Both the position numbers and the translations under genes were made by a program. Positions 4,078-56,200 of a DNA stretch of 64,000 nt are shown one piece after another. The first letter of the stretch is position 1; the number at the start of each line of letters is the position of its first letter. The stretch is from Cellvibrionaceae bacterium (lineage in GTDB: Bacteria > Pseudomonadota > Gammaproteobacteria > Pseudomonadales > Cellvibrionaceae): positions 12,815 through 76,814 of the forward strand of contig JAWUVI010000021.1 of the NCBI GenBank assembly GCA_034112445.1, given 5' to 3'. The notes under the pieces were generated by a model, which worked only from the letters and a program-made list of their open reading frames with translations, had not been told where the DNA came from and did no database searches.

Positions 4078-5513
4078 ATTTTTACCGTGTCATCTTGGTT
4101 AGTTATTAAATGGGGTGTGCTAGTCGCATTGTCAATTTTATCAGCTGACAACTGGCGTTTTGTTTTCGCACCCAACGTTCGGAGATCTTCAACCCGCTTG
4201 AGCAAATTACCTTTGCCTGTCGATAGGCGCTTTTGCGCAGTATCGTATGCCGTATTGGTTTTACTTATTTGCTTACCAATTTCATCTAAAGAATCGACCA
4301 TGAGAACAAATTGATCGTATAAACCACCAGCCTGCCGCGCAATTTCTTCTGCGTTTTTGTTCTGTTTCTCATAGCGCCAGATATTTTCAACGGTTCGTAA
4401 TGTGGCCAATAAAGTCGTCGGGCTAACCAAAACAATGTGTTTATCATAAGCCTCTTTAAATAAACCAGGCTCTGTCTGTAAAGCCAACATAAAAGCGGCC
4501 TCGACAGGAATAAAAATAAAAACGAAATCAAGGGTTCTAATACCCTCTAAATCTTCATAGGATTTCAGACTAAGTTGTTTTATATGGTTGCGTAATGAAG
4601 CCACGTGTTGCTTTAATAAATCAGCTCGTTCAACGTCATTATCGCTCGAAAAATATCGTTCGTAGTGCACTAAAGATACTTTCGAATCTATTACAATATC
4701 TTTTTGTTCTGGCAACCTGATAATAACATCAGGGTTTCTACGGCCACCGTCTTCATTTTTTAATGATACTTGGAGATCGTATTCACGGCCTTTTTGCAGA
4801 CCAGACTCCTCTAATAAGCGCTCTAAAATCACCTCTCCCCAATTACCTTGAGCTTTATTATCACCCTTAATTGCATTGGCTAAATTTAGAGCGTCAGCGC
4901 CAATCTTACTGGTTTGTTTTTGTAATTCTGTGATTTGGCCGACCAATTGATTGCGTTCAGCGGCCTCTTTACCGTAAACATCCTCCACTTTTTTCCGAAA
5001 TTCTTGTAATTGTTCCTTCAGTGGATTAACCGACGCATCAAGTGTGGTTTTACTCTGTTCCGTAAAGGTTTTTTGTTTGCTATCAAAAATTCTATTGGCG
5101 ACCAACTCAAACTCTTTACTTAATTGATTCTTTGTTTCTGATAAATTATTTAATTGAGCGGTTAAGTTATCTTGCTGAGCCTCACTTTTGGCTTTAAGTT
5201 CAGCAAACGCAACTTTAAGCTGATCATGCTCTTTCTGCTCTACTTGCAGCTCCTGAATTCTTTCAAAACTACCGAGTTGTTTCGTTTGTTCCGTCACCAG
5301 ATTTAACTCTAATTGTTTCTGGTCTTCGAACGCCTTGATCAGTTGTTGCTTCAAATCGGTAATTTCAAGGCTGAGCTCACTCTGTGCGTGATCTAAAATA
5401 CGGCATTGCTGTTTCAACTGTCGATATAAAAACAGTGCTAAGATTAAGAGCATTATTGCCGCAAAAGATAGCAGCATAAAAACCTCATTAGGGATTGATG
5501 TCAAAAGACTCAT
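4074..5513 (-). CDS. rmuC: DNA recombination protein RmuC
   Basis: 479 aa. N-terminal TM helix and a long coiled-coil. RmuC-type C-terminal region (GNWGEVILERLLEESGL, PDVIIRLPEQKDIVIDSK, VLVSPTTLLATLR). Confidence 0.85.
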   Translation of the reverse strand: MSLLTSIPNEVFMLLSFAAIMLLILALFLYRQLKQQCRILDHAQSELSLEITDLKQQLIKAFEDQKQLELNLVTEQTKQLGSFERIQELQVEQKEHDQLKVAFAELKAKSEAQQDNLTAQLNNLSETKNQLSKEFELVANRIFDSKQKTFTEQSKTTLDASVNPLKEQLQEFRKKVEDVYGKEAAERNQLVGQITELQKQTSKIGADALNLANAIKGDNKAQGNWGEVILERLLEESGLQKGREYDLQVSLKNEDGGRRNPDVIIRLPEQKDIVIDSKVSLVHYERYFSSDNDVERADLLKQHVASLRNHIKQLSLKSYEDLEGIRTLDFVFIFIPVEAAFMLALQTEPGLFKEAYDKHIVLVSPTTLLATLRTVENIWRYEKQNKNAEEIARQAGGLYDQFVLMVDSLDEIGKQISKTNTAYDTAQKRLSTGKGNLLKRVEDLRTLGAKTKRQLSADKIDNATSTPHLITNQDDTVKI

Positions 5514-5553
5514 TTTGCATACTCTTACAATCTAAAATATTAAAGCCAGAATA

Positions 5554-5997
5554 ATGACCGATTTAAACAAACACTTATTAGATGAGCAAGCCGTGAAACA
5601 TATTAAAGACTTGTGCTCAAAAGGTTATTCTTTGTATGACGCTGACGATTACAAATCGGCACTGAGAGTATTCTATCAAGCTTGGATGATTCTACCTAAA
5701 CCTCAAATAGATTATGAGCAAGCAGGATGGGTCTTAACATGTATAGGCGATACCTATTTTCGACTGCAGCAATACGATCAAGCTCTGGAAGCTATTAATT
5801 CTGCCATGCACTGCCCTGCAGCCAACCGCAATCCATTCTTAACTTTACGTCAAGGACAGTGCCTACTAAAGCAACAAGACTTACCAGCGGCTAGAAAGGC
5901 TTTGTATAAGGCTTATCAAACTGGAGGAATGGATATTTTCACCAAAGAACCAACGGTATATTTAGATTCAATACGCGATTTAATAAGAGATCAATAG
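5554..5997 (+). CDS. Hypothetical TPR-like helical protein
   Basis: 147-aa ORF with helical-repeat-like segments (ALRVFYQAW, GDTYFRLQQYDQALEAINSA). No catalytic motif. Confidence 0.55.
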   Translation: MTDLNKHLLDEQAVKHIKDLCSKGYSLYDADDYKSALRVFYQAWMILPKPQIDYEQAGWVLTCIGDTYFRLQQYDQALEAINSAMHCPAANRNPFLTLRQGQCLLKQQDLPAARKALYKAYQTGGMDIFTKEPTVYLDSIRDLIRDQ

Positions 5998-5999
5998 CG

Positions 6000-8084
6000 T
6001 TAACCAGAGCAGTTTTGATTAAAAATAGATTTTTGTACACCATTAAAAACGTACACCATAAATTCATCCGGTGGTAAGGGCTTTGAAAATAAGTAGCCTT
6101 GAATTAAATCACAATCCATACCCTGTAAATATTGAAATTGCTCTTTTGTTTCAACCCCTTCGGCCACGACTTCTAATGATAAACGTTGTGCCATGGTGAT
6201 AATTAACTCGGTAATAACGCAGTCTTCCTCATCACCTGGAATATCCATAATAAACGATCGATCTATTTTTAATTGATCAATGGGCAACCGTTTTAAATAG
6301 CTTAACGAAGAAAACCCCGTGCCGAAATCATCAACGGATATCCTTAGCCCAAGCGCTCTTAATGCCGATAAATGCTCAATAGTCTGAGACAAGTTATCCA
6401 TGAACAAACTTTCAGTAATTTCCAGCTCAATTAATGACGGGTCTACGCCAACTTCTTTGATTACATTCTCAACCGAGCTGACAAAGCCAGGCGCCATTAA
6501 TTGCCTAGGCGATACATTAACGCTGATAAGGATACGACGACGCAGGGACTTATAAAGAGTTTTAGCCTGCTGACAGCCGCTACGTATTACCCATAGCCCA
6601 AAAGGTATGATTAAGTCACCGTTTTCAATAATATCAATAAATTCAACTGGCGCTCTAATCTTACCATCAGGGGATTGCCAGCGAACTAAAGCTTCAGCAG
6701 AATCAACCTCTCCTGTGCGGACATTAACTTTAGGCTGGTAATATAAGATAAATTCTTGGTTCTCAAATGCACTCTGTATTTCATGTTCTTTCTGTACACG
6801 GTTAGCAACGTTACGATCCATATCTGGAGTGAAAAAGCGAAAGCTATTTTTACCTTTTTGTTTCGCTTCGTACATAGCCACATCGGCATTTTTCATTAAT
6901 TCAGCAGAACCCATGCCATCTTGTGGCGCTATGGTTATACCTAAACTGGCTTTAATAGACAGGCCTTGTCCATCGATATAGACGGGTTGATTTAGCGCAC
7001 GAATAATTTTATTCGCAACAATAGACGCATAATGGACAGCATCGATTCCCGTTAATATTATGGCGAATTCATCTCCGCCTAAGCGAGCTATGGAATCTTC
7101 TTCACGCAAGCATTTTGTAAGCCTTTCAGCCGCCGTAATTAATAACTGATCACCTGCTTCATGCCCCATTGAGTCATTAATCATCTTGAAATTATCTAAA
7201 TCTAAATAGAGTAACGCGATTAAGCTGTCTTCACGTTTGACAGATAGCAACTCTTTTTCGAGTTGGTTCTTAAAATAGGTTCGGTTTTGTAAGCCGGTTA
7301 AATGATCGTAATAAGCTAGCCATGCCATCTTTTCGTTGTGCTCAGAGCCCTGAAAAGTATTTTGAGCACTGTATATATAGCTAACAAAATCACCTGACTC
7401 ATCGATGTACTTATAAACTGTCTGGAAGAGTTCACAAATCGGAACGACATTGTCAGCCGATTTAACTTCTGACTCCCAGAGTGATTCAGTTGCCAATTTT
7501 TCAGTGATTATTTTAGTAAGAGGCTCGAATTCGTCTGGAAATTTATCTCGGTAACAGTCATCAAAGTTAGAGTCGATGGCATTTTCACCAAAGGTATTGA
7601 GGAAGTTTTTATTGGCGTAAGTGATTTCCCAATCAGGGGATAATACAGCGGTTAAATCTTGGCTATTATCTACGATTGAATTCATCTTAGAGAGCGACTG
7701 ATTTACAGAATCCAATCTCTTAATGTTTTTATCGTGACTAGATAGAACCTCTCTGAGTTTTCGCGACATGCTTTCAATAATATTACCGAGCACACCTATT
7801 TCATCATCACTTGTTACCGGTGAAATAAACTTCCAGTCATTTTCTGAGATGTTTTTCGACTCGTCTGTAAGGCGTCGAACAGGATTAACGAAAAGAAAAC
7901 GTAAAGACACCAAACAGACAATAACGGAAGTCAGTATTATGAATGGTAAAATAATCAGCAGGCTATGAAGGTCTTTTTCATCAAAAAAAATACGCGATAG
8001 AATAAAAACCATGACCGATGAACATAAAACACCGATGAGTATCGTCATAAGAGTGATTTTTTTGCTAAGCAATGACTTACGCAC
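6000..8084 (-). CDS. Membrane HAMP-PAS-GGDEF-EAL cyclic-di-GMP signalling protein
   Basis: 694 aa. Two TM helices, a HAMP-like linker and a PAS-like region. Intact GGDEF (RLGGDEFAI) and EAL signatures (EALVRW, DDFGTGFSSLSYL, KIDRSF). Confidence 0.9.
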   Translation of the reverse strand: MRKSLLSKKITLMTILIGVLCSSVMVFILSRIFFDEKDLHSLLIILPFIILTSVIVCLVSLRFLFVNPVRRLTDESKNISENDWKFISPVTSDDEIGVLGNIIESMSRKLREVLSSHDKNIKRLDSVNQSLSKMNSIVDNSQDLTAVLSPDWEITYANKNFLNTFGENAIDSNFDDCYRDKFPDEFEPLTKIITEKLATESLWESEVKSADNVVPICELFQTVYKYIDESGDFVSYIYSAQNTFQGSEHNEKMAWLAYYDHLTGLQNRTYFKNQLEKELLSVKREDSLIALLYLDLDNFKMINDSMGHEAGDQLLITAAERLTKCLREEDSIARLGGDEFAIILTGIDAVHYASIVANKIIRALNQPVYIDGQGLSIKASLGITIAPQDGMGSAELMKNADVAMYEAKQKGKNSFRFFTPDMDRNVANRVQKEHEIQSAFENQEFILYYQPKVNVRTGEVDSAEALVRWQSPDGKIRAPVEFIDIIENGDLIIPFGLWVIRSGCQQAKTLYKSLRRRILISVNVSPRQLMAPGFVSSVENVIKEVGVDPSLIELEITESLFMDNLSQTIEHLSALRALGLRISVDDFGTGFSSLSYLKRLPIDQLKIDRSFIMDIPGDEEDCVITELIITMAQRLSLEVVAEGVETKEQFQYLQGMDCDLIQGYLFSKPLPPDEFMVYVFNGVQKSIFNQNCSG

Positions 8085-8261: not shown

Positions 8262-11018
8262 ATGCGTGAATTCGTTCTTATGTCTCTCATCAATCTAGAT
8301 CCACTTTTACATGCTATTGAACAAGATTACTTGATTCTTACTCCCAACAGCCGCCTAAAAAACAAGCTGATTGATGCCTATAATTCTCAACAGCTACGTA
8401 TAGGTAAAACGACTTGGCGCAACATTAGAGTTAAATCTGTACAAGAATGGTTGCATGAGTGCCATCAGCAACTATTAGACCAAGCACTCGTAAGCAGCCC
8501 CAAGGCTTTGATCAGCTCATTACAACGTCAATATCTTTGGCAGCAAATCATTGAAAGCAATAACACGGGCACTGAATTAATAAATTCACTGCGTCTAGCA
8601 ACTGATGCCGACAGCACTTACACCAATATTCAACGATGGAATCTTGACGACCATTCTTATTTATTAAGTATCACCGAAAACACACTGCACAAGCGTTTTG
8701 TTGAATGGTTACAGGTATTTACTGACACATTAAATGAATTGAAGCTGCACACATTCGAGGACATGCAAAAAACTATTATTCAAGCCTATAAGCAAGGCGC
8801 TCTAATCCAAGAACCTGAAGTCGTTACCTTAGGTTTTGGAGAGTTATCCCCTTTAGTTAGAAATACGTTTAGTGCTATAAGCAACAAAATAACCAGCCTT
8901 TCACCCACGGTAAACAAAGTTCAGAGCTGCGCAAAACTTGCTTGTAGGGATCGTGATAACGAAGCGGAAAATGCCTCGACTTGGGCCAAATCAGTGCTCG
9001 AGACCAATCAGGACGCTCGTATAGGCATTATTGTTCCAAACCTTGGACAAGACAGAGAAACTCTCGAGCGCCATCTATTACAAACATTTGAACCGCATTA
9101 TCTATTGCCCGAAACCAACCGCTACACTTTACCCTTTAACTTTTCAACCGGTGTCCCTCTAGGCTCTACCCCCTTTATTAAAGACACGCTAAACCTTCTC
9201 AAACTACTGCAACACGAGTATCAAACAAACACGTTAATTAGTTTATTGAACTCTCCTTTTTGGGGCCCCGAACATAGCACCCTAAAATGTATTGCTTTTG
9301 GACCCGATGAGCTAGACATTAAGTGTCAGTTAATCGATACGATTAAACGCAAAGGTCGAGCCACGCTATCGGCAACTCAATTTCGATATCTTGTGCGTAA
9401 ATGTGCCGAAACTCAGGCTAAAGATTCAGAATTTAATTACGAGGCTTGGTTAAATGATGCACTACAAACCATAGAGACAAATTCACGTTCAACCCCTACA
9501 AAACAATTGCCCAGCCGTTGGATTGTATTTTTTCAGCAGCAGCTAGAAGCCTTAAACTGGCCAGGACAAAGGCGTTTAGACAGTATTGAATATCAACAGG
9601 CGCAGCAATGGTTCACCTTTTTAGAAGATGTTTGTCGTTTAGATCAACTGCAAGCTCCAATAAGCTGCTATGACATGTTAGAGCGCCTCAGTAGCAGCGC
9701 CAACAACAGCCCTTTTCAGGCTCAGACCCAAGAATCCCCAATTCAAGTACTTGGAGCCCTTGAAGGCGCGGGACTCTTATTTACCGATTGCTGGGTTATG
9801 GGCATGACTGACAAAGACTGGCCCCCCACCCCACAGCCCAGCCCACTATTATCAATATCGGTTCAACGCCAGCATGGTATGCCTCATGCTGATGCAGCTC
9901 GTGAATTGATGTTTGCCGAAACACTGACTCACGACTATCAACATTGTGCCGAGCGGGTTATTTTTTCACACGCCACCGCCGACACCGAAAGTAAACTTCA
10001 GCACAGTCCACTTATCGATTCAATCAACGACGTAAATCTCGACGAGGTCATAGCTCAGAGCGACGGCTATCTAACCACCTATATCAATCAATTACAGGCT
10101 TCACCCAAAAGTGAAAGCGTAGACGTATCGTCTGCGCCAATAATGAGCACTGCGGAAAAGCAGTTCGTGCGCGGCGGCAGCCAAATTCTCCGCAACCAAG
10201 CCATTAACCCACTAGCCGCCTTCTTTATTCATCGCCTTGGCGCACAGCAGCCACAACCAATAAATCTTGGGTTTACACCGCAACAGAGAGGTCAAATATT
10301 ACACGATACTTTGGCTACTTTTTGGACGGACATTCAAGGCCAAGAAAACTTATTAGCGCTGGACAATGAACACATAGAAACCACTATTTTATCCTTAATC
10401 AATAGCCAGATGCTTAGCTATCAACAACGTGAACCTAAGGTTTATAACCCCCAATATTTAACCCTTGAGGCTAACCGACAAACACAACTCATCATGCAAT
10501 GGTTAGAACAAGAAAAACAACGACCAGCGTTTACGGTAAAAGGCTGTGAAACACCTATTACTGCAAATATCGCCGGCCTGACGTTGAATCTTCGTCTAGA
10601 TCGGCTTGATCAACTGCAAACCGGCGAATTGATTATTATCGACTATAAAACCGGCACACCCACATTAAAACAATGGGGTTCAGATAAACCAGAAGAACCT
10701 CAATTACCACTCTACGCCTTAACTTATGAACCCCAAATTCAGGCGCTCATGTTTGTGCAAATCAATATGAAGGCCGTTGCCATGAAAGGCATCGGTGACT
10801 TGACGGATCACCATGACGGGGTTATCCCTACAAGCAAAGGCGCCAGCCTAGATTTACCGGAAGACTGGCAGGCTATGCTTGAACATTGGCAACACACTTT
10901 GGAGCAATTATCGTTGGATTTTCAAAATGGCGTTTCTAGCAACGATTTTAAAACACCGGCACTGTCGCGTTATTACGAACACCTTAATGCCTGTCTCAGA
11001 ACACAGGAGCAGCAGTAA
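8262..11018 (+). CDS. PD-(D/E)XK nuclease family protein, AddB-type partner of the downstream helicase-nuclease
   Basis: 918 aa with a C-terminal nuclease motif (ELIIIDYKTGTP). Its stop overlaps the start of the next gene (TAATG at 11016-11020). No obvious helicase Walker motifs. The start could instead be the Met at codon 7. Confidence 0.75.
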   Translation: MREFVLMSLINLDPLLHAIEQDYLILTPNSRLKNKLIDAYNSQQLRIGKTTWRNIRVKSVQEWLHECHQQLLDQALVSSPKALISSLQRQYLWQQIIESNNTGTELINSLRLATDADSTYTNIQRWNLDDHSYLLSITENTLHKRFVEWLQVFTDTLNELKLHTFEDMQKTIIQAYKQGALIQEPEVVTLGFGELSPLVRNTFSAISNKITSLSPTVNKVQSCAKLACRDRDNEAENASTWAKSVLETNQDARIGIIVPNLGQDRETLERHLLQTFEPHYLLPETNRYTLPFNFSTGVPLGSTPFIKDTLNLLKLLQHEYQTNTLISLLNSPFWGPEHSTLKCIAFGPDELDIKCQLIDTIKRKGRATLSATQFRYLVRKCAETQAKDSEFNYEAWLNDALQTIETNSRSTPTKQLPSRWIVFFQQQLEALNWPGQRRLDSIEYQQAQQWFTFLEDVCRLDQLQAPISCYDMLERLSSSANNSPFQAQTQESPIQVLGALEGAGLLFTDCWVMGMTDKDWPPTPQPSPLLSISVQRQHGMPHADAARELMFAETLTHDYQHCAERVIFSHATADTESKLQHSPLIDSINDVNLDEVIAQSDGYLTTYINQLQASPKSESVDVSSAPIMSTAEKQFVRGGSQILRNQAINPLAAFFIHRLGAQQPQPINLGFTPQQRGQILHDTLATFWTDIQGQENLLALDNEHIETTILSLINSQMLSYQQREPKVYNPQYLTLEANRQTQLIMQWLEQEKQRPAFTVKGCETPITANIAGLTLNLRLDRLDQLQTGELIIIDYKTGTPTLKQWGSDKPEEPQLPLYALTYEPQIQALMFVQINMKAVAMKGIGDLTDHHDGVIPTSKGASLDLPEDWQAMLEHWQHTLEQLSLDFQNGVSSNDFKTPALSRYYEHLNACLRTQEQQ

Positions 11019-26200: not shown

Positions 26201-29200
26201 ACAGCAATAACATCAGCGCCTTGGCTAGCCCAAATAACCAGGTCGTTATTGTAATTTCCAGCGGTTGCGGTGTAAGTAATATCAGCTACGGCCATGCCAA
26301 CCATACGACCATTACTCAAAGTGGCGGTATCGGCTACTAGGCTGTCGAAATCACTGACGTACAGTGAGTTAGCATCAGCGCCGGCATCGATATTTAATAA
26401 GCCATTTATGCCATCTAAAGTACCGTGTGCCACGCCTATATTAGATAAATCACCATTAGCATCACTGGTGATATCTATTCGATCTTCACCGGCGTGCGTA
26501 TTGATATTAGTAACTGTGTTGCTGTTAGTTGATTGAACATTAATAACGTCAGCCGCAGAACCCGTATCAATATTGAGTGTGTCGACACCGTAATAGTTAA
26601 TACCGTTAGTGCGAGTTTCAAGCGAAGCATCACCAGCAGCAACGGTTAATGAAGCTGTTTCATGCTCACCTTGGAAGCTAATCAACCAACCCTCAGCGAT
26701 TTTAATCAAACCGAAGTTATTGGTATGCGGTAAAGCATCATTACTGTTATTTGGGTTCAGAATAAGAGTCAACGCATCTCTAAGAGCTTTTTCATCATCA
26801 ACTTCATTTCCAAGCCAATATTCAGCCCAATCGATATTGGTTGTGCCTAGCTCTTTGGGGCCCAGACCTTCAGGGTCAATTCCAATCACGGTTAATTGAT
26901 AATTACTGGTGCCATCAACTGTTAGAATCTGAGTGTTTCCTGCAACGCTAATAGGTGAACCATCACGTAGCGTGGTGATACGTGCATCGACAGAAATATC
27001 ATCCGCTGCGAACAGACCTGTTGTCGTAGGATCAATATCGACAGTCATTTGTGGAATATTAACACCCGACATTTCACCACCAAAGGTGATGCTGTATAGG
27101 TTGCCACTGGCTGATACTTCTCTTTCAACCGTAATGCCTTGCATATTGGTCATTTCTAGAAGAGTACCAAAGTGATTATTGAGTGCCATTGCCATGTCGT
27201 CAGAACTGATACCGTAGGCCATTGTGGCTATACCGTAATCAACCCCAAAGTTCATCCCGAAAGTTCCACCAGCGGCACGAATGGCTAACTGCTGTTTCTC
27301 CGCTAACGAAGGCATATCCAAACCAATCAAACTGGTGCGTCGAACTTGCAACTCATTGCTGACCTCATCACCAGAGTCATCAACATTAAGGATGTCTCCA
27401 ATATTATCGCCATCCGTTAGATCCGCTTCACCCATATCAATGGTCAGTAAGGCGGCAATTTCATCGGCCAACTGCTCATTACTGCGAACGGTAATAACAT
27501 CATCGCCCGCTTCAGTATTGATACTCGTCACACCTGAAACGGTTTTGACTAGAACATCGTCATCACCTTTACCGGTGGTGATGTTGGTTGCTCCCTCGTG
27601 AGTCGATTCAATGATGACCTGATCGATACCATGACCAAGGTCAAGACTCAGTATTTCAAGGCCTTCATAATGAATACCACCAGTAATATCAGTACCCGCA
27701 ATGGTCACATCATCGCCCATACCTAAGCCGTAAACGCGGCTTTCCGTTATGGTGACGCTTTCATCGGCCGGGCTATTACCGTTGTATATATTCAATACAT
27801 CCACTTGGACAGCTTCATCCACTCGGGTATTGAGGTTTACCGGACGAATAAAGTATGAGTCGGTAGGCAGTATGGTCATGTCCTCCGGTAGATCTAAGGT
27901 CAAGGTCGTTAAGTCTTCAGAAATACCCAATATATCGACAACGGTGAGTAGTTCGCCATTGCGCATGATGGATATTTCATAAGGATTATTCTCAATACGA
28001 GGATCAAAACCATCGGCAAATTCGTTGGATTCAGGATCCCAATGTTCAGCATTTGAATCACTAAATTCATTGCCTGAGACAAAGGTAATTAAACCGTCTT
28101 CTGGGAATAAATTAGTTTCCAGAGGAAGCATGACAGGATTATTGAGTTTGTAATCCGCTCCAATTTGTTCTCCGCCGTTTATAAATACTGGGCCACGTAT
28201 TTGATTAACTCGCTCTGAGCCAGGCGCAAATACTTTGACATCACCTCCATCAATGACCAAATCGTTAAAGGCTTGGACATCTATGGTGCGAATGTCACTC
28301 CAATCTCCGGCAGCTCCAGACGTAAATACTTCACTAGAAACAATTCCAGAATTTAAAATCACCTGAACCTCAGGGTCGAGTTCAGCGGCGTCGGTGAAGA
28401 CTAAATCACCGTTATAGGTTCTGGTTTCAACACCGGCAAAATCAACGGTCACGTCGGCATCTGGAGCACCCGAAAGAACCATGAAGTAATTGTCATCTTG
28501 CCAGTTTGGTGAGGTGTTATAGTCCAGATATTTATCCGCTACATCATAAGTGATTTCATAACGATCACCTTTGTTAATAACGATATCGGTACGATCTAGA
28601 GTAAACGTATCCGACTCTACGTCATAGAATGCAATGGTCGAAGATTCACCCGCATCTACACCCGACAACATAGTCAACGTCATACCTTTCAAATCAACAA
28701 AGTCTTCATCAAGACCATGCCCATCAAGAGAGATATTCAGTTGATAACTGTCAGTCATCCCCTGCTCCCATGTACTCGAATAAAGTACGTTATAGTCAGA
28801 GGTCGTGGTGGAGCTATAGGCCGCTAAATGGATGGCCTCAGGATCAAAGATGTCACCATTCAATTCATAATCGTATACATAGCTGGTTGTTATCACGTTA
28901 GCCGAACGGGAATAGTTAACTTCATAACCTACTTCAACACTGTAAAATCCAGCCGTATCAAACAATAACAACAGCATTGGATCATTGATGTCGGTACTAC
29001 CAACATCCAACTCGTCACTTAAATCCATTATTTCACTATTAGGAATGAGCACTCGGCTCTCGCCAGTTCCCTGATAGATTTTCAAATAAGGAACATAACT
29101 CGCTGTATAGGTAGTAGTGGTGTTTATCTGTTGAATGGTAAGTTCATCAAGATAATCAACAACTTGAGATCCCCAAAAGGTGTCTACCGTTTTAGTGTTA

Positions 29201-32200
29201 AATACAGGTGTCGATATAACTTCGTCATTCGTATAACTACTGGTGTCAGTAAACGATTTACCAAAATCAAGATCAAACAAGCCTTGCGCCGAGGCAATAC
29301 GTTGTTGACTGATAACGGCATCATCTATCTGATTGCCATCCCCAATGACAATAGTTGCACCATTAGCGGTTGCATTATTGGTTAAACCCGCGGCCTCTAA
29401 TTGCAACATCAACCAATCAGCAACAATATTATTAATTGGTTCTGCCACCGTAACAGCGGCTATGTCTGCTTGGGTCACTTCATGAGTAAACGCAACACCA
29501 TTCACCGTCACCATCCAAACATCCCCAATAGCCGGAGAGCTGTCAGCGTTCAGATCAAGAGTGAACTTATCCCAGCGATCGTGTGTATTATCCCATGTTG
29601 GAGCTGGTAAGATTTCTGCATTTTTAATGATTAAGTTGGCGTCTATTTGCCCTTCATCTGCAGCCACAATAACCAATTCATCTCCAGAAGCGGTTACATC
29701 ATAACCGCTACCAAAGTGAGTACTGATCGCCAAGGCCATAGCGTCTAGGTCAGTTGTTGCGGTGCCAATATAAGGTTGCACACCAGACCCGGCGATAGTA
29801 ACAGTCCATTGATCACCAGCTGAAATTAATCCGCTGACATCGATGCTTTGCTCATAAACCGTAACAGTACTTGTTGTAGGCGAGGCTGACGTAATGACAT
29901 CGGCATGCAACGTCAGATTGGGAGCCGCGCCATTTGTGCGTTTAATCAACAAAGTATTGCTATTGGAATCATAAGTAGCCGTATAAGAACCACCAAAATC
30001 ACCCGCTAAATTGTCACCGATGGTACCCAATGCCAGGGATCCATCTGATTCACTAGAGACAACCGTTGAACCTGACAAAACACTCCAATTAGCTGCTGTG
30101 ACGGTATTATCCAACACTAATTTTTGTTGATACTGGCTATTGGAGGAAGCAAACGTGCCATTACCTGAAGCGGACGAGGTTGCTGTCGAAATGCCGCTGC
30201 CACTTGCGGCGGCGATAGCCGTTAATCCAACGCTAAACGATGTTGAATCTATCGAAGTAACAACATAATCAGAACTGAGAGTATTACTTAGGTAAGAACG
30301 TAAATCAGCCGTAACATCCGCCAACGAAGGCCGATCTGCTACATCCGTGAAACTGGCCGTGTAGGTTTTAGTCACCCCATCAATATTGATGGTCCAAGAC
30401 TGGCCACTGCTAACTTGTCCGGCATCGCCTACGGTAAAGGTACGCTGAATTAATTCTGATGAAGCTCCTTGTATCTGCTCATCCTCAGTAACCGTAAGAG
30501 AAACGCTTTTAGAACCAGCATCGACAATTGAAAGCTCATTACCATTAGAAAATCCAGAGTACTCAATTCGGTAATCAGAACCTAGACCTGGTGCTGTGTC
30601 GGTTTTGACTTTAGCGATTAAGCCATTGGCTATTTCGGTGAACGTTGGGTTGCTATCGGTTGGGTAAGTAAAGGTATCACTGCCAATGGTTAGCGCCCAT
30701 ACCTGACCGGTACCATATGCAGATACAGAAGATAAAACAAAATCATTCTCTTGCAGTTCAGTCGACGACTGAGATGAAACTACAGTCGTCTCATGATCTA
30801 CGTCTAGTCGGAATCCAACTTCAGTATTGCTAATCTGTACACTCTTATTATCAGCACTACGAGTCACATTAAAGAAGGTGTTTACAGAGCCATAAAACTG
30901 AGTATTAAGACCAGTGCTAGCATGATTCAACTGGTTGAATAAATCTGTCGTTAGAGAAATATCTGTACTGCTAGGACCTGCAGTAACGGTGTACTCTTCA
31001 CCACTCACATTGACAGTCCAAACATCTCCATCAGTGACAGAAGCAGGAAAATCTATCGTAGAGCTAAGACGCCAGCCACCAGCTGCACCAGTATCACCAA
31101 CATCAGCAGGACTATTGTTGGGAGCTCCAGCTGGACCGGACAACATGTCGGTTGTTACTTCTATAACATAATTATCTTTGTAGTAAGAACCACCGCCTTC
31201 AATGGTGAGGTGATGCATTGAGTCATCAATAGAGCCATCAAGGGTACCAATATTATCATTGGGTTGATCGTACCAGCCGGTGTTCTTACCTGTGATGCTA
31301 TCCGTACTGACCTGTTGACCTGTGGTTAATTTAGATTCTGCTTCATTCTCCAACAGCGGTGCAGGTATAAATTTAAATTCGGCAACCTCTTGGTTTTCAA
31401 GACCGAGGTGTAACTTATAATCTACGCCTTCAGGAACACCGGTTCCGTAAGTCGCTGATTTGTTGGTTCTACCATCGACTTCAAGAACGTAGATGCCAGC
31501 CGTATTAATTGTTGCTGATAAGCGAGCATCATTGATGCTTGTGCTACCAGAGTCGGTTGTCGAACTACCAAAACCAGTAATACTCACTGGTACGTATTCA
31601 CCATCAATTAATTGCAAAAGGCGTAAACTACTCTGCCACCAAATACCATCTCCTGACTCATACCCCGAATCAATATCAGCGCTAAAACTTACAGGACCTT
31701 CTTTGACAACAAACTCGTAATAGTCACGGCTATCATCGCCGGTGCCATTAACGGTTATATGAGGTCTGTCTTCAGACAGTTCGATGTCATCGCTAACAGC
31801 CTCACTCCAACGTGCAAGACTGAGGTCTTGAGCCGTAGCCATGGAATCATTGCCCACTAACTCTTCTACTTCAGCAAGACCAACACTGCCTGTAAATAAA
31901 TTGCCAGCGGCATCAGTAATCGCTTCACCTTGAGCCAGTACACCTGTTGTAGCACGCTCTGCCACTTGGGTAGTGGAGTCACTTTGTAAGCGATAAGAGG
32001 TGATAATGTCATCGACAGTTGAGTCAATACCATCCATATCGGTAATGACTCTCTCAAGTAACAACAGAGTTGGTTCGTCACCATCGGCGATGGTGACGTC
32101 GACTACGCCCATATTAAAGCCGTCGTAGTTAGTGTCTTCACTGGTCACTGTATGAGTAATTCGCCCGTAGTGTGTTCCTTCAACCACATCATCCGCATTC

Positions 32201-38200: not shown

Positions 38201-41200
38201 GACGGAGCTGTAGTGGCTGCCGCATCGGCAATATCCATTGGATCACTGATAAATGAATTATCAGCGACAGTAAAGTTCGAGAAATTACCTTTGCTGTCTT
38301 TAGCACCATCAATAATTTCGATACGCCATGGATCACGGTGAGTACCAGCACCAGCTACAGAAACCTCATTGATACCTGGAAGCTTTTCTAGCTCGGTAGT
38401 TAAATAATCGATTCGCGCTTGCTTGCGTAGAATATTTTCAGCTTTAGTAAAGTTAACATCATCGTTCGGGTTTGTAGGCAACGTGAAGACGTGTGAATCG
38501 GTTGTAGCCGAATCATTATCGTCATAACTCAGAGTAAATACTGTGCTTGGATCTGTATGGGTTGAGCGCACATAAAACTGCTGTAAAGCAAACTGTGGCT
38601 TATCAAACATGGCATCCACATCGGGTTTGCCTGCTAGTAACGCATCGGTTAAATCGGCATTTAAGCGCTGTACGTAAGCTCGCGCCACCTTGGCATCAGC
38701 AATAGACTTATCACTACTAAATAATTTGTAGTATTTACCTTCAGAATTAGCGTCAGCATCAATAATATCGATAAGCCAAGCATCATCTTCTGCACCAGTT
38801 CCTGTAACCGTAACGTTACGAATTCCGGCCAGTTTTTCTAATGCTGCTTTAATCGCTGCGGCTGAACTCGAACCGTCCAAAATGTCGGTTGTGGATTCTC
38901 CATGATACTCCAACGTAAATGCATCACTCGCAACATCGCTTGTATAAGTCACTTGCTGACTGGCCGTATCAACATCCATATGCAGGGTATCGGCTTGAAC
39001 CAATCCATTGCCCCCACCCCAGATTTCAACGCTGTCAGTTTCTTCCGTATTCGTGCCGCTATCGCGAACCTCAACGGACGACTCACCAGCAATCGCTCCA
39101 CTTAATGTAATCACATAGGTATCTGAGCCTTGATTACCATCCAAAATGGCTTGCTTAGTGAAATCGTTAATGGCAAAGCTGTTGTTAGACGCACCGCCAT
39201 ATAAGGCAAATTCTTCAAACAGCGCCATAGTGACTTCAGTTTCATCAACAGCTACTTGTCTAGTCTCTAAGTTAATAACGCCGTCTACCTGAACGGGGAA
39301 GATTCGATCTTCTATACCCGTAATGTGCAACGTAGAGTTTGACAGTGAGTAATTGAGATCGCGAATTTCAAGCAAGGTGTCTATATCACCAGAACCTTCT
39401 AACGAGCCATCAATGAAGGTATCGACCCCGGCGCCACCGGTAACCAAATCACTACCGGTACCTGAATCGATAGTGTCACCTAGGTGATTGTCACCTACTG
39501 ACAATTGAGTGCCTACAATTCGGTCATCACCAGCACCGCCGACAAGGGTTAGGTTATCGACAACATGGGCGGTAATTATTTCATGAGATTCAATTGCGGT
39601 GATGTCTTCAGGCAGGAAGCCAGCAATAATAATATCATTACCACCTATAACTGGATCACCATTTGAATCTACCGCATTGGTATTGGCATCACCTTTGATA
39701 GTGACATTATCGCGATTACCTGTAATGGGTGCATTCTCGGACATATCATCGGCATTACCATCAAGGTCAATGCCACGAACAATAATGCTTAGATTACGAT
39801 TTTCAGCGATACCGTTTTCATCGATACGATGATGATCTACTTGTAGAACGTCAGTATAAATTGTCTGCGCATCAGTACCGGCACCAGTGACTAAATGGCC
39901 GACAGTGAACGAATCATCTTCAGCGTTTGAACCGGCAATGGTTATGCTATCAACCGCATCATCATTGACATAGGTTGGGTCTAAGAACCAATCGGTTTCT
40001 CCGGTTTTTTGTAACACAGCACCATCAACTGGCTCATTACCTTCTACCCGAACACCATCTTTGTAGTAGGCCCAAACGTCTTTTTCTTTCATCCGTGGGC
40101 CAAGTTCTTCAACGGTCTGATAGGCTGAAATATAGACATCGGCCGACGCATCTGACTGTGCTGTGGTCAATACAGCGAGCTGCGGATTGCTGTCAGAAAT
40201 TGTTTGTAATACCCAACTGCCACTTTCATTGAGTTTCTCAATGGTGTGGAAGGTAGTAACGGTATTTTGTTTCACAGCTTCAAAATCAGAAAAACTGTAT
40301 TGCGCGGTTAATGTTTTAGCTGAATCAAAACTGCCTATAACAAACGCCCAAGGCTCTAAAACAGTGCCTTTACCTTGGACCTCAATAGTTCCGACAGAAG
40401 GGAAAGCGGTAGATAATTGCGATAACAAAGAGGCTTTAACGGCATCTACTTCTGCTTGTGTTGCTGAACTGGATAACCAAGTAAAGTTAATCGCTGCAAC
40501 AGCTGAACCATCGTATGAGAAACCCGCTGAACTGACGCCAAAAGGAATATTAATCGATGCCGATGTACTGCTGTCTGCAGTCGCTTCGGCCACTTGTGGA
40601 TCAAGATCAAAATTAATCGCTAATAATAAATTGCCCATGATTGCGCTAACAATTTTAAATTGTCCGTTTTCATAGGTCACTGCAGCGTCACTTAAAGGTG
40701 ATGAAGAACTCAACAAGCTCTGTAAAGCCACCGCTTTAGCTTCATTTGTGGTCACATCCGTAGTCGCTGAACCAAAGCTGACGCCTAAATCAACTGGGTG
40801 TGACGGATCAATGTTTAGGGTTGTGCCATCAATTATAAATTCAGGTGGTAAAAATTGAGTGGTTATTTCGGTAACGGTATTAAGACTGACTGTTTCACGC
40901 ATTTCTTGAACAGCAACAACATTCGCAAAACTGTGTAATGCGCCTGCACCTGTGCGATCTGCTTCAACAAACGCGACAGACCAAGCAACAGACCAAGGGT
41001 CTTCAGCAGTCACTTGTCTGGCTACTTGTACATTCGTAATACCGTTAAGAGCCTCTAACGCCGCCTCTACTTCTGCGGCGGTCATGTCGGCTTTAATTAA
41101 CGCTTTTTCACCGTTGTAAGAGAAGTATGCACTCGATTGCCACGCTTCCAAACCAATGATTCGCTCAGCCACATCGGCCGTTCGAGTTTCATGTTTTTTA

Positions 41201-44200
41201 CCATGAGTTAACACCGCCGCTGATGAAGCCGCATTTAACTGCAGATATTCACCATTAACATTATCAGCCGAGACCAACGTAACTAACCAGTTACCGGCAA
41301 CTCCGGTAACTTTAACCTGATCAATACCGGTTAAGGATTCCAATGCTTCGGTAATAGAAATCGAGGAACCACTAAAGTTGATATCGACACCTTGGCCGCC
41401 ATACCAAACGGTTTGCGTATCACTGATACTTAATGTTTGAAGGCTATTGTCAATAACATTTCTATTGACAGATACAGTGCGATCGACTGCCTCTAACTCA
41501 GCAAAGAAAAACTTACTAAAGGTATCTTCGGGGTTAGCAATTGGAGTTAACGTAATTGCCCAGTCTGTTTTAAGCGGGTTATCGCCGTTTTCTGATTTCA
41601 CCACCGCAACGTTAGCGTTACTTAACGATTCAAATGCTTCTAGAGCCGCGACTAGTTCAGCGGCTGTCATAGAATCCGTTAGGGTGAGCGAATCATCGCC
41701 ATACCAAAGTTGAGTTTCGTCTGCGGTTAATACGGTAATGGTTTGCGCTGGATCACCATCAACTGGATCACCATCAACTACATCAGCCTGCAACCTAGAT
41801 TTCTGAGCCTTAAGGACAGAGACAGACAATGTAGAAGGCGTGGCTTCATGGAAGGTTATTTCCCAAGGATCAGCCGCTAAGGTAGGTATAACAACACTGA
41901 CATTGCCTAACAAGCTTGCAATGGCACTGGCACGTTGCTCCTTAGACAAACCGACAGCATTAACTGAACCAACGGCAACTCCACCATAACTAAACGCTAA
42001 TTCAGCCGCATCAGCAGGCCAAACGAAGCCTTGTCTCATTAAATTACTTTGGCTTTCAATACTGGCTAGAGTGTCAGTAAGGGTATAGATGACAGTCGTA
42101 TCTACAGATGTTCCACCGTTAACAAATTCAATCACCTCGGCCGCATTCGTAAACACAAATTCCCAAGGTGACTCTTCCGTACCATCACCCGTTACGGTAA
42201 CTGAATTGCCTGAAGCGGCGAGGATAATATTGAGTTGTGCTTGGATATTGATTGGGGATTTTGAACCGCCCAATTCATCGATCGCAAAGCCCTGATCGCC
42301 ATACCAAATAATGCCATTGGTTTCAAAACTCGCTAACGCCAGCAGTTGAATTTTGTTATCAACGAATTCATCCGCATTGACTGTATTTTCAACCAATAAA
42401 GGCTCACCAGAAGCGTCATACAAATACTCAGCGGTCTGGCTGTCTAATCGATAAAACACGTTATTTGAGCGAGTGTCATTATTTTGCAACAAGCTACCCG
42501 TATGGGCTTGCACACTGTATTCATAACCCAATAACTTAGTGACGGCTGATGTGAAAGTAATTACCCAAGGATTGGTTTCTGAGCCTGTGGTACCGGCTGC
42601 AACAGAGACTTGGCTCGCATCAATACTGGCCATAGTTGCCAGTGCAACTTCAATTTCAGTTGCCGACATGCCTTTACTGATTGTTACGCTGTCAGCCGTT
42701 GAATTAGAACCCAAATATAAAGTGACTTGATCTAAGCCATCATCAATCCACAGTGTTTGCTCTGTTTTATCATTAGCAAGACTGGTGTCTTCGGCTGTTT
42801 TAGCTTTGGTAATTAATTCAGGTGAACCATCATCATTAAACTTATAGGTGCCGCCTTCTTCTAGATCGTAACGGTAGAAATAACTACTGCGTTGATAACC
42901 ATCTATTAAGGTTTCTGGCTCAGTTGGAACCAAGATGGGGAAGCCGTTGGAGTCAGTGACAACAATGGTTTCACCATTGACGTCTAACACTAAAGTTCCC
43001 GCGTCATCGCGCAACAGTTTTGGTTCTTTTTGTAATAGTGAAGCGTAATTCGCAGGGTACACTTGGTGGTTACCCTCAGAGTCACGCTCTATTTGATACA
43101 TGGTAGCCTGCTCGTTACCAAGCTGAACATCCACTGACAGTAAGCTGGTATCAAGCAGATCATCAACGGTGATTGTGTCTTCACCGCCTTTCGCGTCGAG
43201 CATAATGTTTTCAACATTAAGGTCTAAGCTGTCGCCATTAATTGTTAGTGTCGCGAAGTTTGGCAAACCAGAACCGATGGCCCTGCCGCTGTCGGTTATA
43301 TTAATCGTACTGTCAGAATCATCGGTGGTGGCTTTTAAGGTGTCTACACCTGCCCCGCCATCAACTTCTAGTAACGCGTTAGGATCAGTTATATCCGCGT
43401 ATTCCCAAACGATAAGATCATCACCCGCATCACCATAGGCACGAACAGCCCCAGTACCAGCGTAAATTGAGTCATTACCTGTACCGCCGTAAATTACATT
43501 ACCACCATCAGAGGTTATAGAGCTGTCACGTGGATCACCGCCATACAGTTGATCCCAACCACCATCGCCATAAATAACGTCACTGCCAGCACCGCCATAA
43601 ATAACGTCGCCATGGAAAGATCGAATAATGACGGCCACGCCACCAATATCATACGGTGTCGCTGAGTAATCACCCGATTCGTTAACGATGAATGAGGAAC
43701 TGGCCACATCGTAATAATGAGTACCGTTACCTTCGTCGGTTATGTATTCACCGGTATCCGTATCAAGTTTAAAATCGCCTACTTTGGCAATGCGGAAAAT
43801 ACCTAAGTCATTATCAAACAAGAAAGGTCCATTCGCTTGATTTGCAAAGACAGAAGGAAAACCAAACTCGTTATAGCCCAGTAAACTGTTGGCTGTACCG
43901 TCACCAAAGCGCTCACCATCTGGCTGGTATATTTCTGCATTGCGCAACACACCATTCACATCAACGTAAACGGCTGCCACTTCGTCTCCACCGCGAATGA
44001 CATCATCGCCTGCGTAGGTTGCTATAACATCAAAACCTGTGCCGCCCTGAACAATGTCATCGCCAAAACCACCAAAGATAGTATCGTCGCCTGAACCACC
44101 GTCAAGAGTCATGGAGCCTGGGCTTGGAACAGAGGAGTTACCGCCATAAGCTGCATTCTGGCCGGTTACTTTCAAGGTGTCCTTACCGGCATCACCAGTC

Positions 44201-53200: not shown

Positions 53201-56200
53201 CCACTGGCTGCTTGAGCCGTGAAAGTTAAATTAATGGTTTGCTGAGTACCATCGGATAAGTTGAGAACGATGCTATGAGAAATATTTTCAGCAACTGTAT
53301 CAAGCTGCGCTTCATCGCCAACCACAAAATGGTAACTTCCGTCTGCATTGACAACAATATAATCTTGGCCGCCCCAACTGTAGCTCTCCCCTAAAGGAAA
53401 TGAGCCACTATTGCCAATTGCAGAAACTTTAACGCCTTCATTTAATGTAAATTGACCATTCAACACTAAGCCCGCCGCTTTAGTGTCAACACTCACAGTA
53501 CCGGAATTAACCGTAATTTCACCGTTAACCAGTGTTACTGTTTTGGTCAGTGTTTCTTCTGTACCCAGCTCGTTTTGAACGGTTACTGTGAACTCATCAG
53601 TAAAGGTTTTACCTATAGCTTGTGTGGCAGCACCAACAGCTGGCTTGTATGCATAACCGCCATCTGTATTGACAGTTAACGTGGCACCACTGGTTAATGT
53701 AATCGGTGACCCACTGGTAATGGCGGCATCGTTAATTTTAGCAACGCTAAAGGTATCTATATCTTGGCCCCAATCACCCGAAAATAGATAAAGATCATCA
53801 CCATGGCTGCCAACAAGACCATCAGCTCCTGCACCGCCGAGTAAAATGTCATCTCCCGTACCGCCAAAGATCAAATCGTTATCAGCACCGCCGTCTATGT
53901 AGTCGTTATCGTCTCCGCCATAAATAGAGTCCGCACCTGCCCCACCACTGATGTGATCAGCTCCGGCTTGGCCTTCGATAATATCGCCTTGGGTAACATC
54001 AGATTCATCACCACCAACAATGGTGTCCATACCGGCACCAGCAATAATAAGGTCTGCTGATGAACCTCCAGTTAGAGTGTCATCATCAATATCACCAAAT
54101 AATTGAGTCTCAATACCGTCAGCAGCAGTGAACGTATCATCTTTATATGTGCCAACTAAGAGGTTAATGCCGGTAACGTTTCCACCAAATCCTAAAACAC
54201 CAGCCGCTGTTGCACCGGTTTTCAAATCAACGGTTAAGCCTGTTCCTGCAATTACAGTGTGTGCTGAACTAGGGCTGGAAGCACCTTCAGTAGCCGTTGA
54301 GTCAACAGTTAGAACACCTTCCGCTGAACGACTAATAACAAAATCTAGGCTATGAACTGTTGGTGTAATGTCATCGCCTGCAGCATTGGCAACTGAATAT
54401 GACACAGATAAATTTGTAGACGCGCCATTGGCTAGGTTTTTAAAGTCTTTATCTAGGTTAACGAGATACTCATAACTACCATTAGCTGCCAGCTCAACTT
54501 CACCGAACCCAGTAACAGGGTTTGATGTGAGAACGTAATTAACCGCATTAGTTACGGATAATTGACCCGATACGACAGCTGGGATTGTGACCGCTGCTTC
54601 GTAAGCCAAAGTTTGAACATTACCGGTGAGCTCGCCGGCTGTGGAATTTAGATATCCGCTTATGCTTCCATCTTTTTCCACAAAATATGAATTATTACCT
54701 GCACCACCAATAATGTTGTCCACTTTCTCGAAAGAAGCGCGGCGAACTTTATCATCCGTGCCAATAGTGGAGACAATTACGGTTCCGTCTTCTTTAATAG
54801 TGAATTTTAGATCGGTTGTAACTTGACTGAAATCGAGGGTTACGGTCGAAGACTCGCCATTCTCAATCAGTAACGTATTGAGCCAATTATTTTGAAAGGC
54901 ATAAGTGTTAACCGCACTACCACCAACCAGTTTCTCTATATTAGTGATGCCACTGATACTATCAGTACCAACTGTTGCACCAACTCCTGTAGAACCAATG
55001 GTAAACAAAACATCCGAGCTGGTGTAGGTGAAATCTATAGAATCTAAAGAGCCGTCGGCTGAGCCTTCATTAATAACGGTGCCATTCCAACCCGTGCCGC
55101 TGAAAACATAAGCATCGTCGCCTTTGCCGCCGGTTAAGTTATCACTACCGGTTGAGCTGTAAAGAACGTCTGAGCCGTCGCCACCTAAAACAGTATCATG
55201 GCCTTCACCACCAAAGAGCAAATCGTCTCCACTACCGCCTTCTAGAGTATCTGCGCCGCCTTGGCCCCATATTTCATCATCGCCTGCACCGCCTATCAAG
55301 GTATCAGCCACCGAACCATCAGCTCCGATTAATGTATCGTTACCCTGACCACCATCAACCGTTAACTGGGATGTTGTGGTATTGGAGATATAATCATCAC
55401 TAGAGCTGCCTTGTACGAGGTTGTCACTGAATATTAAGCCTTCACCTTCGGCAGCGCCTAGATCAATATAATTAAATGTGAAACCTTCAAAGTTAACCCA
55501 ACTGTCATCTGAATTCTGCGCTGAAAGAGCATCGTATAATTCATCAGCTTGAGCTGTAGAGGTGTTATTAACGACTACAGCACCTTCAAAGTTAGCGGCG
55601 TAACTGAGATTAAAGCTGGTGGTATTACTGTTGGTACCCGCTGCCGCTTTAAGCGAACCAGATAAACTACCCGCGCCACTGAAGATCACATTATTATCAG
55701 ATCCTTTACCCAAAATAACGTCGGAAACACCTTCCGCAAAAATAACGTACTCGCCGCTGGATAGATGAATCGTTACCTTAACTTCGCCGTCACCATGTAT
55801 ATCAACATCGACAACACCGGTAACACTGGATAGATCAAGTAAATTACTGCTTTGCGAACCGTCAAACTGAAGACTTATAGAGCCCGCTTCTGTAATGGTA
55901 CCGATAACATAGGTACTCGAGGAAAGGCCCGACGAAGGTACTTTAATGCTCTCAATATTAGAGCCACTGATATTAAAGGTAAGGTCTTTTTGTACAAAAC
56001 TGGTGATTTTATTAGTGACCGTTAAGGTCTGCTCTGGCGCATCAACAAACAAAATGCCTTCATCGTTAATGTCTATTTCAACTTGATTTAGGTCTACTCC
56101 ACCTTTTATACCATTTGCTTGAATTTTGGTTTCTACTTTTTCTTTCCAAAGCTGCATAATGACTTCAGTTAGCTTTTCATTACTGACGACTTTGGCAATA

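Follow-up and report, generated by a model that had tools for sequence, protein, structure and literature searches.

Architecture of the giant ORF

The DNA stretch analysed here (hereafter the window) comprises 64,000 nucleotides, corresponding to positions 12,815 to 76,814 of contig JAWUVI010000021.1 in the assembly GCA_034112445.1 of a Cellvibrionaceae bacterium. It harbours a single minus-strand open reading frame (ORF) coding for a giant protein of 11,951 residues, which hosts all the copies of a module of ~95 residues that is the subject of this report. We show below that this module is a real, autonomous and ancient domain, homologous to the C-terminal extension (CTE) domains of mycobacteriophage Bxb1, and that it is the cellular counterpart of a domain found on the surface of virions. 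The giant protein contains eight tandem positions of the module, namely seven clear copies and a degenerate one, and two further copies (numbered 9 and 10) are found ~430 residues downstream of them. A remote eleventh copy lies in the C-terminal part of the protein. The lengths of the units range from 91 to 100 residues. The only Pfam matches in the protein are an N-terminal DUF4347 domain and blocks of RTX nonapeptides, and more than 85 % of its sequence is devoid of any Pfam match.

The repeats form a genuine domain family

The motif [DENSTGA][PDAN]W.[IFVLA].[FLIWV], which describes the acidic-Pro-Trp strand of the module, occurs nine times between residues 5509 and 6922. Elsewhere in the giant protein it is matched just once, by an unrelated segment of the DUF4347 domain. 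Hidden Markov models (HMMs) built by leaving out one copy at a time regained every clear copy that had been left out, seven of them with E-values between 1e-7 and 5e-15 and the other two with E-values of 2e-3 and 6.5e-3. With these HMMs, no non-seed segment of the 11,951 residues scored better than E 0.2. A second HMM was made of 298 instances that all come from proteins of other organisms. This foreign-only HMM regained all nine clear copies, with independent E-values (iE) between 9e-10 and 1e-26, and it also detected the remote copy.

The layout of the copies is conserved. In related genomes, two orthologous giant proteins of 11,352 and 12,076 residues harbour eight tandem positions, a gap of ~400 residues and two more copies. 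Tandem position 7, for which the foreign-only HMM gives a marginal score in the window, is supported by the orthologous position being significant in one of these proteins (G020, iE 1.7e-6).

Pairwise identities between the copies are between 22 and 31 %, and no long-period DNA repeat was found in the region; the duplications are therefore old. The sole DNA-level repeat of the region is a perfect 15-bp tandem (2.1 to 2.3 copies) at window positions 41748-41785, which codes for the DGDPVDGDP linker immediately ahead of copy 4.

With such low identities, and with two copies that score weakly in the leave-one-out test, the module might be taken for a short motif that recurs by chance in an acidic, low-complexity giant protein. 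This explanation, which we consider extremely improbable, is refuted by the scores of the foreign-only HMM (iE down to 1e-26), the conserved layout in the orthologues, the 1,775 database clusters that match the module and a confident AlphaFold2 fold that matches solved structures, both described below.

The features are listed in Table 1. The first-pass annotation of the window, made by a model from the sequence alone, had proposed ten copies at 40330-42770 and 38310-38930 and a degenerate one at about 27080-27275. The profile searches and the orthologues agree with this count, as nine clear copies and a decayed one at position 7. The boundaries of the two blocks (40273-42780 for the tandem and 38251-38988 for the pair) differ from those first proposed by a few tens of bases, and the degenerate remote copy was also recovered (iE 7e-6).

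Table 1. Giant ORF and copies of the module, with coordinates in the window and scores in the two profile tests.
Feature	Window positions	Strand	Residues	Description	Leave-one-out E	Foreign-only HMM iE
Giant ORF	23242-59097	-	11,951 in total	Pfam matches: DUF4347 (residues 150-339), RTX blocks
Copy 1	42493-42780	-	5440-5535	NPWVITF	2e-8	2.5e-15
Copy 2	42088-42375	-	5575-5670	SPWEFVF	1.6e-7	9e-12
Copy 3	41788-42075	-	5675-5770	DPWEITF; helix most divergent	6.5e-3	4.6e-11
Copy 4	41485-41772	-	5776-5871	TDWAITL	1.4e-7	2.5e-13
Copy 5	41212-41484	-	5872-5962	GNWLVTL	1.3e-7	1.7e-17
Copy 6	40918-41205	-	5965-6060	DPWSVAW	2e-12	8.5e-22
Tandem position 7	40588-40875	-	~6075-6170	Degenerate, P-W lost (ENGQFKIVS); aligns to core pattern		0.017 (marginal)
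Copy 8	40273-40572	-	6176-6275	EPWAFVI; insertion after helix	2e-3	8.8e-10
Copy 9	38701-38988	-	6704-6799	DAWLIDI; best score; AlphaFold2 model	5e-15	1.3e-26
Copy 10	38251-38544	-	6852-6949	DPWRIEI	2.5e-8	1.1e-14
Remote eleventh copy	27073-27303	-	10599-10675			7.4e-6

Elsewhere in the giant protein, segments such as QTFTLALGYESTT...AEWIQDVQQAINDA (window 56100-57200, residues ~640-1000) loosely recall the strand-helix theme of the module, and the family HMM gives no significant match to them (iE 0.07 at residues 785-810). A second class of ~100-residue repeats, the G(D/Q)xW modules of residues ~9345-9950 (window 29290-31035), was compared with the module by hhalign and discarded as a relative (probability 0.1 %). 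On the opposite strand, a 170-codon ORF at window 40163-40675 lies wholly within the giant gene and is most likely spurious.

Signature and predicted fold

The conserved core of the module spans ~75 residues. It starts with a strand (Q-x-L), followed by an aromatic strand ((F/Y)-x-(Y/F)-G), a short strand and a helix (AAEVxxALExL). After the helix come a V-x-V-x-G strand and a P-W-x-V-x-F strand, and then a variable last strand and a linker. The signature that had been read by eye from the window copies (the aromatic strand, the AAE(V/I)xxALExL helix, VxVxG and PWxVxF) matches the columns conserved in the whole family, i.e. G28 (82 %), L48 (94 %), L51 (82 %), V59 (93 %), W69 (75 %) and F73 (68 %). 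In the remote copy, the C-terminal half is of the YSITFGG...NIPQMTVD type, which is common in the wider family. A subset of the homologues, possibly of eukaryotic origin, has yet another variant of this half, V-x-V-x-R-x-G-P-D...G-Y-x-W-x-V-T-F-x-S...G-D-x-P-x-L.

The AlphaFold2 model of copy 9, computed with the other copies as the alignment, has a predicted local distance difference test (pLDDT) score of 80 and a predicted template modelling (pTM) score of 0.75. Its elements follow the order b-b-a-b-b-b, as expected for the alpha/beta domain that had initially been proposed. A model of three consecutive copies, whose alignment was built with orthologue rows, displays the same unit three times with low-confidence linkers (pLDDT 60, pTM 0.38).

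The six conserved positions are almost all hydrophobic and look like core positions. The ten copies contain no Cys residue, and the conserved residues include no catalytic-looking polar constellation. An enzymatic or metal-binding role is therefore unlikely.

These features also bear on the only named family that came close to the module. Scans of the repeat region with Pfam-A and NCBIfam yielded no family at E <= 1 other than a sub-threshold match to the HMA domain (PF00403), with 16.6 bits for a cut-off of 24.8. A similar match was obtained with one homologue (18.6 bits), and the PDB sequence search gave a weak match to the HMA domain of a zinc-transporting ATPase (E 0.19). That the module might be an HMA-like or ferredoxin-like metal-binding domain is nonetheless very improbable. 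The matches remain below the gathering score and span only ~20 residues of the helix region, the total lack of Cys means that the defining CxxC site is absent, and the Foldseek probabilities for ferredoxin-like and RRM folds are only 0.06 to 0.35. The identity with HMA is thus effectively refuted by the lack of metal-binding Cys residues, and the features that define membership of that family were not found.

Other candidates were rejected as well. The S-layer/SLH and uL23 matches of the PDB sequence search were dropped as non-significant (E 0.3 to 0.7). An ester or isopeptide cross-link of the Thr-Gln type, formed by the Q that is conserved in the first strand, was set aside because the window copies do not conserve its partner residues.

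Distribution and domain company

A profile of the nine clear copies was searched against 1.84 billion representative proteins and matched 1,775 clusters (at 50 % identity) with E <= 1e-3, of which 531 had E <= 1e-10. Single proteins have up to 41 matched stretches, with a typical spacing of 80 to 110 residues. By contrast, word-seeded searches with the 836-residue tandem block and with the giant protein limited to residues 5440-6950 returned no homologue at E <= 1e-5, because the members of the family have diverged too far for word seeding to work. A tblastn search of a phage collection with the family consensus gave no match.

In its own genome, the module is found solely in the 11,951-residue ORF. 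Of the 41 related genomes, three carry it, in each case within the orthologous giant protein, and it is present in three of 301 genomes sampled across the phylum. The named homologues come from Lentisphaeria, Planctomycetota, Verrucomicrobiota, Cyanobacteriota (Crocosphaera), Chloroflexota and Pseudomonadota, and nearly all of them are annotated as hypothetical proteins. No Pfam model covers the module in the 60 homologues that were scanned (10 and 50 in two sets). In the study of Kamneva et al. (2015), the repeats of the cargo protein were not discussed.

Among 50 homologues, the co-occurring Pfam domains include RTX (7) and fn3 (4), as well as Filamin, TIG and PA14. Parts of phage tails, namely Ig_J_second, Baseplate_J and BppU-like_C, are also found alongside the module. 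The location of the module in giant secreted proteins, as first proposed, was corroborated. It is not restricted to giants of the DUF4347 type, a possibility raised in the first-pass annotation: a DUF4347-like N-terminus was recognized in at least three of the 150 best-scoring representatives, a lower bound given that many entries are partial. In P0059, a metagenomic homologue of 395 residues, four copies of the module come after a prepilin motif (prokaryotic N-terminal methylation). Type IV pilin-like proteins may therefore be further carriers that display the module.

Relationship with the CTE domains of phage Bxb1

When the profile made of window copies only was searched against the PDB, the first hit was the ‘tail tip cage’ protein gp23 of Bxb1 (E 2.3e-4), which was partially matched three times in tandem. 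We then used a family-wide profile (A6), composed of three window copies and 35 foreign instances, against all 177,635 distinct PDB sequences. Exactly three sequences were matched, all of them virion proteins of Bxb1: gp23, the record of which is annotated as tail tip cage/Dit (E 8.1e-53, three domains of 47 to 57 bits), the major capsid protein gp14 (residues 313-377, E 1.8e-9) and the tail tube protein gp19 (residues 205-255, E 4.8e-5). Direct alignment of the window-only profile with a Bxb1-only profile using hhalign gave a probability of 79 % and an E-value of 1.6e-5, at ~20 % identity. In addition, one of the window copies matches the C-terminal end of phrog_10909, a family of major tail proteins.

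The structural searches point to the same proteins. With the single-copy model, the top Foldseek matches in the PDB are the Bxb1 capsid chains 9d9x_Ha and 9d9w_Aa, the latter with a TMq of 0.59, a root-mean-square deviation of 2.6 A over 87 columns and a probability of 1.0. They are followed by a protein of phage Patience; the paper on the Patience capsid contains no description of the matching domain. In the predicted viral structures of BFVD, the best matches are major tail, minor tail and minor capsid proteins of actinophages. For the three-copy model, Bxb1 gp23 is the sole PDB match at E <= 1e-3 (9d93_Md, E 1.1e-4).

Thus, the module resembles the gp14, gp19 and gp23 segments by profile and shares the fold of the solved CTE according to Foldseek, albeit with marginal single-copy E-values. 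Its size (91 to 100 residues), its patchy distribution and its presence in very different architectures are those of an autonomous accessory module of ~90 residues. The carrier differs: it is a chromosomally encoded DUF4347/RTX exoprotein rather than a virion protein exposed on a particle, which is a feature of context. We infer that the copies of the giant protein are likewise exposed at a surface.

Several points weigh against these conclusions. The Foldseek E-values of the single-copy model are between 7e-3 and 7e-2 despite the probability of 1.0, and its output comes without aligned residue ranges on the targets. The phage evidence obtained with the window copies only is modest (E 2e-4; hhalign 79 %), and the strong E-values come from a transitive profile built with database homologues.

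The first-pass annotation considered the domain to be undescribed. This holds for domain catalogues, as neither the window copies nor the 60 homologues are covered by a Pfam-A or NCBIfam entry, and Pfam scans of the CTE parts of the three Bxb1 proteins similarly found no family other than a sub-threshold match to DUF5114 (16.7 bits for a cut-off of 27). Nevertheless, the module is not without precedent, because its structure has been solved on Bxb1 and the corresponding genetics published. The first-pass annotation would have been refuted by a confident match to a characterised family, and this applies by half, as the phage domain is described structurally and has no family database entry.

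In Bxb1, the CTEs are external to the capsid shell, dispensable for viability and the dominant antigens of the particle, and they are not present in closely related phages (Freeman et al. 2021, PMC8704799). Those on the capsid assemble in distinct ways on hexamers and on pentamers, where the subunits are tightly packed, and Ig-like motifs are present in the corresponding extension of phage Wildcat (PMC8704799). The natural role of the CTEs is given as unknown (PMC8704799). In the Dit protein of Bxb1, three extra CTE-like domains give the tail tip its barrel or ‘cage’ shape (PMC13252515). A tblastn search with the CTE block of gp23 retrieved 375 phage records, nearly all from mycobacteriophages, and the matches fall on Dit/minor tail genes and on tail sheath genes of myophages.

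Within gp23 (L009:11928-13982), the A6 profile matches three successive N-terminal halves of the domain, at residues 268-328, 328-386 and 385-467, and only the third runs on into the half that contains the aromatic strand. Isolated C-terminal halves are found at residues 511-553 and 565-595. The three domains may have a nested or split arrangement.

Possible functions of the module

Overall, the module is probably an independently folding, CTE-related domain of ~95 residues that serves as an exposed bead, lengthening the exoprotein and providing weak adhesive or self-associating contacts. We infer the functional part of this explanation from the arrangement and company of the copies. The eight tandem and two nearby copies would form beads on a string in the RTX/DUF4347 exoprotein, extending the molecule and supplying many weak contact surfaces. 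Their partners might be surface polysaccharides or other copies of the module. The use of the module in tandem beside classic extracellular spacer and adhesion modules is in favour of such a role. Ig-like, FN3 and TIG modules play a similar extender and contact role in other adhesins and on the virions of other phages.

The contacts between copies could also be the main purpose of the domain. If the modules chiefly bound one another, in cis or between adjacent giant proteins, they would build a lattice, sheath or matrix at the cell surface. The tight inter-subunit packing of the Bxb1 capsid CTEs into distinct hexamer and pentamer assemblies (PMC8704799), the tail-tip cage formed by the three CTE-like Dit domains (PMC13252515) and the existence of arrays of up to 41 matched stretches would fit with this scenario. 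We nevertheless regard it as unlikely, since the conserved positions look like core rather than surface residues. Furthermore, the three-copy model predicts no fixed interface and shows no confident packing between domains (pTM 0.38), although at this low confidence it represents absence of evidence only.

A primary function in ligand binding appears just as doubtful. Each copy would then recognize a defined glycan or another ligand, in the manner of carbohydrate-binding modules. PA14, galactose-binding-like and BppU-like receptor-binding modules do accompany the module in some homologues, and the module is located on phage tail and tail-tip proteins. However, no conserved cluster of polar or aromatic residues was seen at the surface, the conserved W of the P-W-x-V-x-F strand looks like a core residue as judged from its conservation, and the copies share only 22-31 % identity with one another. 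Moreover, laboratory infections by the phage do not require the CTEs (PMC8704799). We thus favour the exposed bead with weak contacts over a dedicated binding module.

Significance

The link between the phage CTEs and a family of cellular surface proteins with more than 1,700 clusters may be new. As neither Pfam-A nor NCBIfam has an entry for the domain, long stretches of hundreds of giant ‘hypothetical’ surface proteins are left without annotation. This gap would be closed by a curated model that takes the window copies as its seed and the Bxb1 structures as its anchor. Bxb1 serves as a chassis for therapeutic and vaccine use, and its capsid and tail extensions act as the dominant antigens. 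The occurrence of the same domain in tandem arrays of secreted bacterial giants points to a general role in extracellular scaffolding or adhesion. More speculatively, the CTE module might be a widely exchanged surface decoration that tailed phages share with giant exoproteins from several bacterial phyla, with a common activity yet to be discovered, such as the binding of an abundant extracellular polymer or the formation of homotypic lattices. We hold this to be a possible but rather unlikely scenario. If it is correct, the study of the cellular arrays would reveal why phages like Bxb1 cover the capsid, the tail and the tail tip with these domains.

Comparison with known systems

The HMA domain (PF00403) has in common with the module an amphipathic helix followed by a strand (a..v..al..l.GV..v.v), which is the source of the sub-threshold matches. 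It differs from it by its CxxC motif, in contrast with the Cys-less module, and by the presence of a single strand before the helix, where the module has two to three.

The Ig-like, FN3 and Big_2 decoration domains extend the C-termini of capsid and tail tube proteins and form tandem arrays in giant surface proteins; they are of similar size and dispensable. The module occupies similar positions in its carriers, and fn3, Filamin and TIG domains co-occur with it in the homologues. Nevertheless, those domains are all-beta sandwiches, unlike the alpha/beta module with its conserved helix, and the Pfam and NCBIfam scans revealed no sequence or profile relationship between them.

The closest system is that of the Bxb1 CTEs, which correspond to residues ~305-397 of gp14, residues ~195-283 of gp19 and the three CTE-like domains of gp23 (PDB 9D9W/9D9X and 9D93). 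They belong to the same sequence family by profile and have the same fold by Foldseek and a similar size of ~90 residues. The shared signature comprises the (N-E-V-)Q strand, G-T-F-x-L, T-T-x-x-I, the A-x-A-x-x-V-x-x-A-L helix, the V-x-V strand and the aromatic-x-(I/V)-x-F strand. Tandem use is also common to both, with three copies in gp23, as is a location on the outside of a large assembly, which is presumed for the giant protein. The two differ in their carriers, a virion for Bxb1 and a cellular, secreted RTX/DUF4347 protein of 11,951 residues here, and in the number of copies, one to three compared with ten to eleven. Lastly, at ~20 % identity, the window copies lack strict N-E-V-Q and Y-N-A-S motifs, and they have P-W where the phage domains have P-Y or D-Y.

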